Assembly: GCA_041641305.1 (NCBI GenBank)
Contig: JBEPYN010000002.1
Coordinates: 466,009 to 530,008 of the forward strand
Direction of reading: 5' to 3'
DNA: 64,000 nucleotides
Origin: Nitrososphaerota archaeon
GTDB taxonomy: Archaea; Thermoproteota; Nitrososphaeria_A; Caldarchaeales; Caldarchaeaceae
Below the pieces are notes generated by a model that worked only from the letters and a program-made list of their open reading frames with translations, was not told the origin of the DNA and did not search any database. The position numbers were made by a program, and so were the translations under genes. Below are positions 1,136 through 58,333 of the stretch, piece after piece. Each line of letters begins with the position of its first letter. The stretch's first letter is position 1.

Positions 1136-1240
1136 GGGCCCGTAGCTTAGCATGGATAGAGCGCTGGCCTCCGGAGCCAGAGGTCGTGAGCGGCGGTACG
1201 GAAGTGCCGCGCCGGCAGGGTTCAAATCCCACCGGGCCCG
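1136..1240 (+). tRNA. tRNA-Arg (anticodon CCG) with a 30-nt non-canonical intron in the T-arm
   Basis: 7-bp acceptor stem GGGCCCG/CGGGCCC with discriminator G. Anticodon stem CTGGC/GCCAG with loop CTCCGGA (U33, CCG, G37). After removing nt 1188-1217 the T-arm reads GTGGG-TTCAAAT-CCCAC with five Watson-Crick pairs. No CCA is encoded. A T-tract follows at about 1262. Confidence 0.85.
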
Positions 1241-23407: not shown

Positions 23408-23975
23408 GGCCCTCCTATTCGCGTCAGACAAACCCGTGGACATCAAGACGCTGCAGCGCGCTCTCCGAACAAGGTCACCTGAAAAGGTTCGGAAAATTCT
23501 GGAGATGTTGAAGAACGAGTACAGCGGGAGAGCTGTGGAGATAGTTGAGCTGGACGGCGGGCGATACTACATGCGGCTGAGACCCGACCTCGCAGCCCAT
23601 GTCAAAAAATATACACGCCGCAAGATGCTTCCACACGGTGTCCTCAAAACCTTGGCGACAATCGCATACTACCAGCCCATACCGCTTTCAACACTCGCGG
23701 CAATACGTGGAAAAGACAGCTACAGGCAAATCAAGATACTTCAGGAAAGAGGGTTGGTCGAGTCTGAGAAAAAAGGCCGCACATCCGTTCTAAGGACTTC
23801 TCGACTTTTCGCGGACTTTTTCGGCGTGGAGAACACCCCGGCCTCCATCAAGTCGCTCATAGAAAAGATGCTTGCCTCGGGAGGTGAAACAAGTATAAAA
23901 CATGCTTCAACTCCGAAGAAGCAGAATGGTTCAGTGGCACAGCGACCTTCACAAACGCAAAAAGACGGGGGCTAA
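23400..23975 (+). CDS. scpB: segregation and condensation protein B
   Basis: Tandem winged-helix protein: AEALLFASDKPVDIKTL...LDGGRYYMRLRPDLAAHV and GVLKTLATIAYYQPIPLSTLAAIRG. The ORF is open from 23241, but the likely start is GTG at 23400, overlapping the scpA stop. Confidence 0.7.
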   Translation: MAEALLFASDKPVDIKTLQRALRTRSPEKVRKILEMLKNEYSGRAVEIVELDGGRYYMRLRPDLAAHVKKYTRRKMLPHGVLKTLATIAYYQPIPLSTLAAIRGKDSYRQIKILQERGLVESEKKGRTSVLRTSRLFADFFGVENTPASIKSLIEKMLASGGETSIKHASTPKKQNGSVAQRPSQTQKDGG

Positions 23976-24315
23976 GGCTCATCCAGCCAGGAGTAGGAGA
24001 AAGAGGGAACGCGGCGGCGAGATAAACCTTGTCTCGCTTGGGGAGCAAAAAGTGGTTACACGTAGAGCATCAGGCGGAAACCTTAAGGCAGCTGTTCTAT
24101 CGACGAAAACAGCCAACGTCGCAGTCGGCTCCGTTGTCAAGCGTCTCGAGATACTCCGCGTAGTATCCAACCCCAGCAACAGAGACTATGACAGAAGAAA
24201 AGTCATCACCAAAGGCACATTAATAGAGACGCCTGAGGGTCTCGCAAGGGTCACGTCAAGCCCCGGACAAGACGGCACAGTCAACGCCGTTCTCGTGAAG
24301 CAGGGAGGGGCTTGA
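23926..24315 (+). CDS. rps8e: 30S ribosomal protein S8e
   Basis: N-terminal MVQWHSDLHKRKKTG with an RKRERGG basic tract. C-terminal ITKGTLIETPEGLARVTSSPGQDGTVNAVLV matches the S8e signature. Overlaps the scpB 3' end by about 50 nt. Confidence 0.85.
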   Translation: MVQWHSDLHKRKKTGAKAHPARSRRKRERGGEINLVSLGEQKVVTRRASGGNLKAAVLSTKTANVAVGSVVKRLEILRVVSNPSNRDYDRRKVITKGTLIETPEGLARVTSSPGQDGTVNAVLVKQGGA

Positions 24316-24599
24316 TTAGACGTGATGGCTTGATTTTGTGGCCTGTTTACTTCGACTCTAAGAGCAGCCGTAAACAGGGGCGTCGTGTTTCACGCGGTCT
24401 CGCGGTTCAGAGGCCGTCGGCGGATGATTTGGCGGCGGCGTGTAGGAGGCTTGGCTACGAGGTTGAGAAGGCTGAGGCTGCTTACCCTCGGCGATGGAGC
24501 AGGAGAACTGGCTATGTTGTCGTGAAGCCGCGGCCGAAGATGTCGAAGAACATGTTTCTCAAGATGGTTGCGGAAGAGATGCGGAAACATGGTAAGTAG
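24312..24599 (+). CDS. srp19: signal recognition particle protein SRP19
   Basis: LILWPVYFDSKSSRKQGRRVSR...YPRRW is the conserved SRP19 core. Confidence 0.8.
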   Translation: MIRRDGLILWPVYFDSKSSRKQGRRVSRGLAVQRPSADDLAAACRRLGYEVEKAEAAYPRRWSRRTGYVVVKPRPKMSKNMFLKMVAEEMRKHGK

Positions 24600-24837
24600 A
24601 CAGACGCTGCGAAGGCTAAAGCTTCTCGGAGAAGTCCTCCACATCCGCAGGGACTACCTCGTCATCAGGGCCTACACCGTGCCACGGCTCGGCGACAAAG
24701 TCTACAACGGCAAGGGCAGAGAAGTTGGTTATGTCTCAAACATATTTGGGCCTGTGTCGTCTCCGTACGTGGCTGTTAAGCCCGCTGCGGAGGCTGAGGT
24801 TGTGGAGGGTGAGGCGCTATACGTGGAGAAGAGCTGA
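24589..24837 (+). CDS. gar1: H/ACA ribonucleoprotein complex subunit Gar1
   Basis: LGEVLHIRRDYLVIRAY...LGDKVYNGKGREVGYVSNIFGPVSSPYVAVKP is the Gar1 beta-barrel signature. The gar1-tfb gene order is conserved in archaea. Confidence 0.8.
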   Translation: MVSRQTLRRLKLLGEVLHIRRDYLVIRAYTVPRLGDKVYNGKGREVGYVSNIFGPVSSPYVAVKPAAEAEVVEGEALYVEKS

Positions 24838-24839
24838 GA

Positions 24840-25628
24840 ATTTGTCCACAGTGTGGAGAGCCTTCACTCGTTAACGACCCTGCTTCGGGCGAGCTTTTCT
24901 GCAGCGTCTGCGGCTCGGTTGTAGAGGAGAGAGCAGCATCAACAACTCCCACTAAGAAAATGTTGCTCGACCCCAGGGGCGGGGTAGGGCCTAGGGTTAC
25001 AAGCCTTCTACACGACGGGGGAATAGGGACAATCAGCAAGGGCCGCTTGTTCTCCGCTGACGAGAGGTTGTTGAGTCGGTTGCTGAGCGAAGTTTTCTGG
25101 ATAGCCGACAAGGCCGGTCTACCTCGTCAAACAGCCGAGGGAGCGGGGGAGCTCGCGAAAAAAGCTGTCGCATCGAAGCTGGTCAAGCGCTCGAGAAGAC
25201 CCGCCGCAGCGGCTCTGGTTTACCTGTCATCAAACAGCAACGGCCTCTGCAAATCCCTGGAAGAGATTGCCTCGGCGGCCGATGTCCCCCTCAACCAGCT
25301 CAACCGAGAGGTATCCAAGCTCGTTTTCGGCCTCAACCTGAAGCTCAAACCATTCAACATCGCAGCCCTAATAGACAAGCTGACACGGACCCTGGAGCTG
25401 CCGCCAACCCTGGCCAACACAGCCTGCAGAATCTACCAATCTGCAGCCAATTCAGGCAAACTTTCAGGCAGAAAGCCAGCCACCATATCCGCGGCCGCGG
25501 TCTATCTAGCCTGCCGCCGAGAAGGAGTAAAGAAGCCCCTCAGCACCGTCTCCGAAGCAGCGGGGGTCAGCGTCCTAACCCTCCGCAAAGCCATAGCCCT
25601 TCTCGAATCAACCGCCGAAACATATTAG
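24840..25628 (+). CDS. tfb: transcription initiation factor IIB (TFB)
   Basis: The in-frame N-terminal zinc ribbon ICPQCGEPSLVNDPASGELFCSVCGSVVEE (24840-24930) is followed by the linker and two cyclin repeats, ending in the C-terminal HTH. The first ATG is at 24960, downstream of the zinc ribbon. No ATG/GTG/TTG lies between the upstream stop (24810-24812) and the first Cys codon. Confidence 0.85.
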   Translation: MCPQCGEPSLVNDPASGELFCSVCGSVVEERAASTTPTKKMLLDPRGGVGPRVTSLLHDGGIGTISKGRLFSADERLLSRLLSEVFWIADKAGLPRQTAEGAGELAKKAVASKLVKRSRRPAAAALVYLSSNSNGLCKSLEEIASAADVPLNQLNREVSKLVFGLNLKLKPFNIAALIDKLTRTLELPPTLANTACRIYQSAANSGKLSGRKPATISAAAVYLACRREGVKKPLSTVSEAAGVSVLTLRKAIALLESTAETY

Positions 25629-25678
25629 ATGAGACATCTTTATCAATAAGCAGTGCGTTTATATCATTTTGGGTAAAC

Positions 25679-26026
25679 TTGCCTGCGAAGCTTTCTAAGC
25701 TGGAGGAGAAGGCGTTAGCGCTGTTGATGCAGAATGAAGTGGGGATGCTTCAGTCGGAGCTGTGGCATAAGCTGGGGGTGACGAGCCGTGAGGGCTCGAG
25801 GATAGGTATTAAGCTGGAGCGTAAAGGCTACATTAAACGGGTTAAGGCTTTCAGCAACGATAGGTGGACGCGGAGGCTTGTCCCCCTCATTAAGCAGATA
25901 AACATAGAGCCGCTTGTCGGCGTGCCCTGTCCCTCATGTGTGTATGACAACGTCTGTGGACCGAGAGGCGAACCCCACTACAAAACATGCATATTGCTAG
26001 AGGAGTGGCTGAGCGGCCAGAAGTAA
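25679..26026 (+). CDS. winged-helix protein with C-terminal 4-Cys motif (candidate TFE-beta-like transcription factor)
   Basis: 115 aa. N-terminal WH-like LSKLEEKALALL...KLGVTSREGSRIGIKLERKGYIKR. C-terminal CPSCVYDNVCGPRGEPHYKTC, a four-cysteine cluster. Located immediately downstream of tfb. Confidence 0.5.
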   Translation: MPAKLSKLEEKALALLMQNEVGMLQSELWHKLGVTSREGSRIGIKLERKGYIKRVKAFSNDRWTRRLVPLIKQINIEPLVGVPCPSCVYDNVCGPRGEPHYKTCILLEEWLSGQK

Positions 26027-57260: not shown

Positions 57261-58333
57261 CCCAGTTCAGCCATCTCTTCAAACAGATGCCACGGCATGG
57301 TGGCGTAAACGTCTTCGAAGATGACGCGTGGGCTGGGCGGCGGTGTCTTCTCCGCTTCCTCGGTGGCGCGGCGCAGCTCGTCCTTGAAGCCGTCCACAAT
57401 TTTCTGCTCCTCCTCGGGGGACCACAACCTGTTGCGGGTAAGGTAGACCCGAAGCCGCTTCAACGGGTCAAATGCCCGCATTTGTTCAACCTCTTCTTCG
57501 GAGCGGTATTTTGAGGGGTCGTCAGCGGTTGTATGCGGCCCCATCCTGTATGTGACGGCCTCTATCAGAACAGCGCCCTCACCAGCTCGGGCCCTCTCCA
57601 CAAACTTTCTGCAGACAGTGTAGACAGCGAGGACATCGTTGCCGTCGACCCTTATTCCCGGAATTCCGTAGGCTTTTGCCTTTACCGCTATGTTGGGTGC
57701 GGCTGTCTGCATCTTGAAGGGAACGGAGATGGCCCACTGGTTGTTCTGAACAAAGAAGACCACGGGGGGCTTGAAGACACCGGCCCAGTTCACTGCCTCG
57801 TGGAAATCTCCTTTGGAGGTGGCGCCGTCGCCCAAGTAGACCAGAAACACCTCTTTCTCGCCGCGTTTCTTCGCCGCCATCGCCATGCCAACAGCCACGG
57901 GACACATGAGAGAAACCGCTCCCGCACCCACTACAATCCTATAGCGTCTGTCGCCATACAGCGTGATTTCATGCCCCTTCATGTGGTCGAGGTTTGTGGC
58001 AAACATTCTATGCATCAACGTTGTGAGCGGCGCTCCTCTGAGAAGACCCACAGTCAGCTCACGGTAGGTTGGAAACATCCAGTCTAAGTCGCTCAAGCTG
58101 TGAACGCTTCCCACGACAGAGGCCTCCTGTCCCTCGACCGGCGCGTAGCGTGATGCTTTCCCGAGCGGATGTATCTTGAGCATCCACTGGTCAAACGTTC
58201 TCAGGACAACCATGTCACGCATCATCTTACGCATCATCTCGTTGGAGAGGCCGGGGTCAGGCTCCCCGACCAGCTCCCCCTCAGGGCTCAAAACCCTGTA
58301 AAGCCCTAACTCCGCCTGACCGTCTCCAGACAT
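57257..58333 (-). CDS. TPP-dependent 2-oxoacid dehydrogenase E1 component alpha subunit
   Basis: TPP-binding motif GDGATSKGDFHEAVNWA...NNQWAIS. C-terminal YRMGPHTTADDPSKYR signature. No E1-beta gene is adjacent. Confidence 0.85.
   Translation of the reverse strand: MSGDGQAELGLYRVLSPEGELVGEPDPGLSNEMMRKMMRDMVVLRTFDQWMLKIHPLGKASRYAPVEGQEASVVGSVHSLSDLDWMFPTYRELTVGLLRGAPLTTLMHRMFATNLDHMKGHEITLYGDRRYRIVVGAGAVSLMCPVAVGMAMAAKKRGEKEVFLVYLGDGATSKGDFHEAVNWAGVFKPPVVFFVQNNQWAISVPFKMQTAAPNIAVKAKAYGIPGIRVDGNDVLAVYTVCRKFVERARAGEGAVLIEAVTYRMGPHTTADDPSKYRSEEEVEQMRAFDPLKRLRVYLTRNRLWSPEEEQKIVDGFKDELRRATEEAEKTPPPSPRVIFEDVYATMPWHLFEEMAELG

Follow-up and report, generated by a model that had tools for sequence, protein, structure and literature searches.

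A TFB gene of Caldarchaeum lineages encodes a conserved zinc ribbon without a canonical start codon, most likely read from an ATA inside gar1

In the stretch of archaeal DNA analyzed here (64,000 nucleotides, referred to as the window), the gene for the general transcription factor TFB encodes its zinc ribbon in an open frame that holds no ATG, GTG or TTG ahead of the ribbon. Comparison of related genomes shows that this start-less state is real and conserved among relatives, and the substitution pattern shows that the ribbon is translated. As the most likely start we regard ATA at 24819, a reading in which we place about even confidence, and from which a complete ribbon-bearing TFB would be made by initiation at a near-cognate codon inside the 3' end of gar1.

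The gar1 coding sequence (24589-24837, + strand) runs from an ATG start to a TGA stop at 24835-24837, encodes 82 aa and matches the Gar1 families of both Pfam and NCBIfam. The TFB frame lies one base behind it (gar1 frame minus 1). Re-reading of the sequence placed the opening of this frame at 24813, right after an in-frame TGA (24810-24812), from where it reads GGC GCT ATA (24819) CGT GGA GAA GAG CTG (24834) AGA ATT (24840) TGT (24843), the last being the codon of the first ribbon cysteine (Cys1). Translation of the open frame gives ICPQCGEPSLVNDPASGELFCSVCGSVVEE, followed by the TFB core. The first in-frame ATG, GTG or TTG is the ATG at 24960-24962 (+), and there is none within 24813-24959; the first-pass annotation had reported this lack of a canonical start ahead of the ribbon, and every coordinate was reproduced. 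The ribbon occupies 24840-24953 (+; CPQC...CSVC, with Cys1 at 24843; Pfam PF08271, E=6e-12) and the proposed full coding sequence 24819-25628 (+), ending with TAG at 25626-25628, which would yield 269 aa from ATA (24819-24821) or 264 aa from CTG (24834-24836). Ten codons without a start between a stop and Cys1 are by themselves statistically ordinary, and at least 15 start-less upstream codons were found in 7 of the 50 window ORFs of at least 120 aa. Chance does not explain why a conserved domain under selection should lack a start. Only the TFB extension looks coding, and start-less genes as a general habit were not seen among these 50 ORFs, where TFB stands alone.

The locus was collected from 12 Caldarchaeum lineages, the window included, and related by a neighbour-joining tree. 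The gene order S8e-SRP19-Gar1-TFB is the same in all 12, with SMC, ScpA and ScpB upstream of the operon wherever the collected flank extends far enough. TFB identity between clades is 46-57%, and the Gar1 orthologues are of 82-84 aa with an ATG or TTG start in every lineage. Relative to gar1 the TFB frame is shifted by minus 1 throughout, and Cys1 follows the first base of the gar1 stop by 8 nt (5 nt in L010). In seven of the twelve lineages (the window, L001, L004, L030, L032, L002 and L042) no ATG, GTG or TTG precedes Cys1. The codon at position -8 from Cys1 is ATA in the window, L001, L004, L030 and L032, where the codon overlapping the gar1 stop reads CTG-A; it is likewise ATA in L017, L019 and L036 (TTG-A), L010 (ATG-A), L002 (GTA-G) and L042 (GTA-A), and TTA in L037 (TTG-A).

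The junction of the window is base-for-base identical in three other assemblies (the NCBI MAG GCA_038888475.1, the JGI 3300038392 metagenome contig and Logan SRR27730027), and since these are independent it is not a sequencing error. The option of such an error, raised in the first-pass annotation, is thereby refuted, as the start-less state also recurs in 7/12 lineages. The same recurrence and the shared junction speak against a recent pseudogene, as does the intact TFB ORF, and our search for points in favour of either an error or a pseudogene found none; we consider the probability that sequencing or assembly error or recent pseudogenization explains the junction to be practically negligible.

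By its domains the protein is recognizable as a TFB. In the TFB frame Pfam reports Zn_Ribbon_TF at 45.4 bits (cutoff 29) and TFIIB repeats at 89.6 bits, the latter with PF00382 (the cyclin-like core repeats) matching in two stretches. Among PDB entries TFB matches the TFIIB-named chains 1ais and 1d3u at 2e-15 and human TFIIB at 1.2e-18, while the ribbon matches 1pft (TFIIB N-terminal zinc-ribbon chain) with E=1.8e-5, and the four-cysteine pattern of TFB/TFIIB zinc ribbons, CxxC...CxxC, is invariant in the 12 lineages. A zinc ribbon and two cyclin-like repeats are hence common to archaeal TFB, eukaryotic TFIIB and the window TFB. Compared with these proteins, however, the window TFB is very divergent and short. 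It scores 120.2 bits against NCBIfam NF001658, below the subfamily cutoff of 384, and in a 5.8-billion-protein database the nearest TFBs outside its own branch are only ~26% identical. Homologue searches lead no further than a tight, Caldarchaeum-specific TFB branch, and from these searches the divergent branch appears to be restricted to Caldarchaeum-like genomes. A second TFB was looked for within the window and none was found.

Selection on the ribbon was estimated from two pairs of lineages. Between the window and L001 (88% identical) the ribbon has 17 synonymous and 6 non-synonymous changes (dN/dS 0.06; core 0.09), and between L030 and L032 there are 6 synonymous and 1 non-synonymous (dN/dS 0.05; core dN/dS 0.23). 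The four cysteines and the flanking glycine of the ribbon are invariant in the 12 lineages, down to 46% identity. It is this strong purifying selection (dN/dS 0.05-0.06) that, at the level of sequence comparison, shows the ribbon to be translated. In the public annotation the ribbon is left untranslated and the protein starts at ATG 24960 (222 aa, ribbon absent), which is the first canonical start and was chosen by gene callers and NCBI for the window sequence. We find this start very improbable, as the dN/dS of the ribbon is as low as in the core, its cysteines and flanking glycine do not vary, and its frame and spacing relative to gar1 are conserved. The possibility that this TFB is made without its ribbon, which had been put forward from the sequence of the window, is likewise refuted for the main product by a dN/dS of 0.06 and by the retention of all four cysteines in every lineage.

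The public records illustrate how the missing start has been handled. The 222-aa product of the window is MEM4495175.1 (Candidatus Caldarchaeum sp.), and across the records (P0001, P0005-P0018) at least seven N-termini have been given to one protein (185, 221/222, 234/235, 247, 263, 268 and 269 aa). Some annotated starts lie midway through the zinc ribbon, and in BAJ50148.1 (Caldiarchaeum subterraneum, 235 aa, same cluster) the first cysteine pair of the ribbon is missing. On identical or related DNA the NCBI pipeline used CTG (P0006, 263 aa) as well as ATA (P0007, 268 aa; P0035). Readers of the truncated records would wrongly infer that these archaea have a ribbon-less TFB.

TFB belongs to a tightly packed operon. 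Pfam identifies Gar1 and SRP19 upstream of it, and all junctions of S8e, SRP19 and gar1 (23902-24837, +) overlap. The S8e-SRP19 junction is TTGA in 10/11 lineages and ATGA in the remaining one, even though GCT and CCT are not preferred codons, and gar1 starts 11-14 nt inside SRP19; the S8e-SRP19 and SRP19-gar1 junctions are textbook examples of coupled pairs, and the operon thus supplies its own positive controls for translational coupling. At the next junction gar1 and TFB are co-directional with overlapping stop and start (CTG -4, ATA -19), and this geometry is conserved in the 12 lineages; a canonical restart codon is absent here between 24813 and 24959, and in 7/12 lineages likewise. From this analysis, translation of TFB is probably coupled to that of gar1, much like the adjoining gene pairs of the operon. 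The first-pass annotation had listed, among its options, a rare start codon whose use depends on gar1 translation, and our results support this option. A separate upstream exon-like ORF encoding the ribbon, which would have spoken against it, was not seen.

In overlapping gene pairs of Haloferax volcanii and E. coli, coupling occurs by termination-reinitiation and is often helped by a Shine-Dalgarno (SD) motif in the upstream gene (Huber et al. 2019, PMC6728339). The -4 overlap is the commonest coupling geometry, and rare ATT starts are discussed in the same later study (2023, PMC10666635). The gar1-TFB pair resembles the coupled archaeal and bacterial pairs of these two reports in that the genes are co-directional in a tightly packed operon, the downstream start lies in or on the upstream stop and a candidate SD motif, which is also Gar1 coding sequence, lies inside the upstream gene. 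It differs in that the restart codon is not ATG, GTG or TTG, in that the favoured overlap is 19 nt and not -4, -1 or -8, and in that the coupling is here a prediction from sequence.

Several observations point to the ATA at 24819. The codon is kept in 11/12 lineages, so that the same non-NUG codon is conserved across orthologues, and this against the codon bias of gar1. ATA spans the gar1 codons CTA-TAC, its first base being the third base of the codon that precedes a conserved Tyr. In 11/12 lineages this gar1 codon is CTA, GTA, TTA or ATA. Among the 44 gar1 alignment columns that hold only Leu, Ile or Val the A-ending fraction is 0.21 overall and the next-best column is A-ending in 6/12, which makes the ATA column a clear outlier. 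CTA, TTA and GTA are moreover seldom used in the window, where they account for 10%, 5% and 11% of their codon families. Six nt upstream of the ATA ends the SD-like motif GGAGGGTGA (24804-24812, +), which encodes E-G-E of Gar1 and includes the in-frame TGA (24810-24812) after which the TFB frame is open. Its duplex energy is -10.2 kcal/mol in the window and -8.1 to -12.4 in all 12 lineages at N6 spacing, as calculated with an assumed archaeal anti-SD that may not match that of this genome. The score is at or beyond the 5th percentile of the own locus in 11/12 lineages, with L030 just short of it. Within the motif, Gly is encoded by GGT in 8/12 lineages and in none by GGC, the commonest Gly codon, and the spacing GGTGA-N6-start recurs at the ORF at 50480-51448. 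Before the stop-overlapping codon the SD-like score is weaker than before ATA (-1.1 to -5.9 kcal/mol in 11 lineages), and so are the scores before the SRP19 start and, in most lineages, the gar1 start. In L002 (GTA-G) and L042 (GTA-A) ATA is the sole near-cognate codon and the ribbons are intact; L037, the sole lineage without ATA (TTA), has a TTG with its own upstream GGAGG (-8.4 kcal/mol). The alignment shows that ATA and the SD-like motif are under constraint at the nucleotide level, and we infer that the constraint on ATA reflects a function as start codon. An ATG cannot be reached at 24819 without altering Gar1, because its last two bases would be the first two of the conserved Gar1 Tyr codon (TAY), and under this overlap no better start than ATA is available.

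Three bases before ATA, the G at 24816 (the last base of the gar1 codon GCG, 24814-24816) is kept in 11/12 lineages and is an outlier among 76 four-fold columns; this conserved G may be start-codon context. A conserved RNA structure behind the constrained G and A was not found, as RNAalifold predicted 0 pairs at the junction. We also considered an internal TATA-box promoter as the reason for the conserved TATA(C/T) and found it unlikely. The conserved G misfits a TATA box, and the one clear promoter-like element noted in the window, TTTATATC (25658-25665), is far more A/T-rich. A transcript initiated ~25 nt downstream of such an internal box would have its 5' end within the Cys1 codon, too late to encode the selected ribbon.

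Taking ATA as the start, we propose that the SD-like motif in gar1 would hold ribosomes that are translating or finishing gar1, and that the held ribosomes would initiate 6 nt downstream on the AUG-like AUA with initiator tRNA, giving a product with the N-terminus M-R-G-E-E-L-R-I-C-P-Q-C-G. CTG 24834 may contribute additional initiation. Such a weak start would be expected to hold TFB synthesis below that of S8e, SRP19 and Gar1, with which it is co-transcribed.

Several points count against ATA. The SD-like motif doubles as coding sequence for the conserved Gar1 E-G-E, and SD motifs are not enriched at the gene starts of the window (~4/50 ORFs versus a 5% background), so that only local evidence carries the SD argument. 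Among coupled pairs, an overlap of 19 nt is seen less often than one of -4 (PMC10666635). Outgroup TFBs begin only 2-4 residues before Cys1, and a short N-terminus is therefore probably ancestral. To our knowledge AUA has initiated poorly in every case in which it was measured, and the conserved A could serve otherwise, as a slow rare codon or as a DNA or RNA signal. The gar1 stop, finally, is TGA in 10/12 lineages compared with 32% of the stops in the window, which hints at constraint on an overlapping NTG.

The points on geometry and stop usage bring in the second candidate, CTG 24834 (CTGA with the gar1 stop), on which ribosomes that have terminated at the overlapping gar1 TGA would start anew, the CUG acting as a first-position variant like GUG and UUG. 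Among coupled pairs the -4 overlap of this codon is the dominant geometry (PMC10666635), and the excess of TGA among the gar1 stops (10/12 versus 32%) also counts in its favour. The same position is TTG in L017, L019, L036 and L037 and ATG in L010, in each case sharing bases with the gar1 stop, and the nearest outgroup proteins begin M-x-C-P-E-C in the same place. CTG was also taken by NCBI as the start for P0006, and since L004 (CTG) and L019 (TTG) are 96% identical, CTG and TTG appear to interchange easily. The first base of the codon nevertheless behaves as a free synonymous site (C5/T4/A1/G2 over the 12 lineages), which needs at least six changes on the neighbour-joining tree by a manual parsimony count, one of them separating L004 from L019, and in two lineages that keep the ribbon the codon is GTA. 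There is no enrichment of canonical bases, unlike at the NTGA restart of SRP19 (T or A, 11/11), and a single C-to-T change that is silent in gar1 would give TTG, yet it has not been fixed. With -5.2 kcal/mol the local SD-like score is weak, and the conserved ATA and G are left unexplained. We therefore hold CTG as the start to be possible but doubtful; CTG 24834 and ATA 24819 may also both be used. A further idea is that reinitiation at the junction is largely blind to the identity of the restart codon, so that any codon overlapping the gar1 stop (TTG, ATG, CTG or GTA) would serve. We judge this improbable. If true, it would explain the free drift of the codon beside a selected ribbon, and prokaryotes would then have a parallel to the tolerance for restart codons seen in viral termination-reinitiation.

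ATT at 24840-24842 (+), 3 nt past the gar1 stop, is near-cognate, close to that stop and directly before Cys1, and ATT starts are documented in bacteria (infC). It is however found in the sequence type of the window only; L001 has ACG and the others ACA, ACC, CGC, CCA, GGC or CGG. Between the gar1 stop and Cys1, 4/6 bases differ between the window and L001, and the site is therefore unconstrained. As ATT is not conserved even in the 88%-identical L001 it was rejected, and a start there is scarcely credible. Of the rare starts listed in the first-pass annotation ATA and CTG accordingly remain, while ATT is the worst of the three, for all the proximity to the gar1 stop to which that annotation had drawn attention. 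A programmed -1 frameshift near the end of gar1, giving a Gar1-TFB fusion, would fit a TFB frame that is always gar1 minus 1 and free of stops over 8 or more codons ahead of the gar1 stop. Reading the junctions by eye, we saw a slippery heptamer of the form X XXY YYZ in none of the lineages, RNAalifold gave no conserved structure (0 pairs), and the frame relation follows simply from the overlap of stop and start, which leaves the frameshift an extremely remote explanation. An upstream in-frame start combined with read-through of a stop was also rejected, as several stops lie just upstream in the TFB frame.

Bacterial infC carries a conserved near-cognate AUU start. Read from ATA, the TFB gene would likewise combine a conserved non-NUG start with a product central to gene expression, and the start would plausibly keep expression low. 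It differs in being archaeal and in using AUA (or CUG), and its persistence likely comes from the constraint of the overlap, where the Gar1 Tyr bars ATG, rather than from a demonstrated autoregulatory loop.

Near-cognate initiation itself is already known, and TFB adds a well-controlled instance of it. In H. volcanii ribosome profiling ~30% of the novel initiation sites were near-cognate codons (PMC7261190), and in our literature search on AUA and CUG starts in archaea these near-cognate sites were the only ones found. In the literature searched we found no paper on the start of the Caldiarchaeum TFB, nor one on an archaeal gene whose non-NUG start codon is conserved. Here a general transcription factor comes with a built-in evolutionary series, in which ATA is fixed and the stop-overlapping codon varies between TTG, ATG, CTG and GTA, and together with the positive controls in its own operon this makes a test bed for archaeal start-codon selection and translational coupling. 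The main use of the locus is as such a test case and for the correction of annotations.

Some further features of the window were observed. An Rfam tRNA match of 42.5 bits at 1136-1240 (+) was missed by ARAGORN. Its anticodon loop, CUCCGGA, indicates tRNA-Arg(CCG), and ~30 nt are inserted between its anticodon and T arms, which suggests a non-canonically placed intron. At 58243-58327 (-) ARAGORN reports a tRNA-Gln for which Rfam has no match even at E<=1; it lies inside long ORFs and is probably a false positive. Downstream of TFB an ORF of 115 aa (25679-26026, +) occurs at the same position in most related loci (~113-118 aa), and the TTTATATC at 25658-25665 is a strong TATA-like element just upstream of it. 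The ORF matches no Pfam family and shows weak winged-helix (MarR-like) matches and a C-terminal cluster of four cysteines (CPSC...C...C). As far as can be read from its sequence, the product could be a small transcription-related protein with a winged helix and a cysteine cluster.
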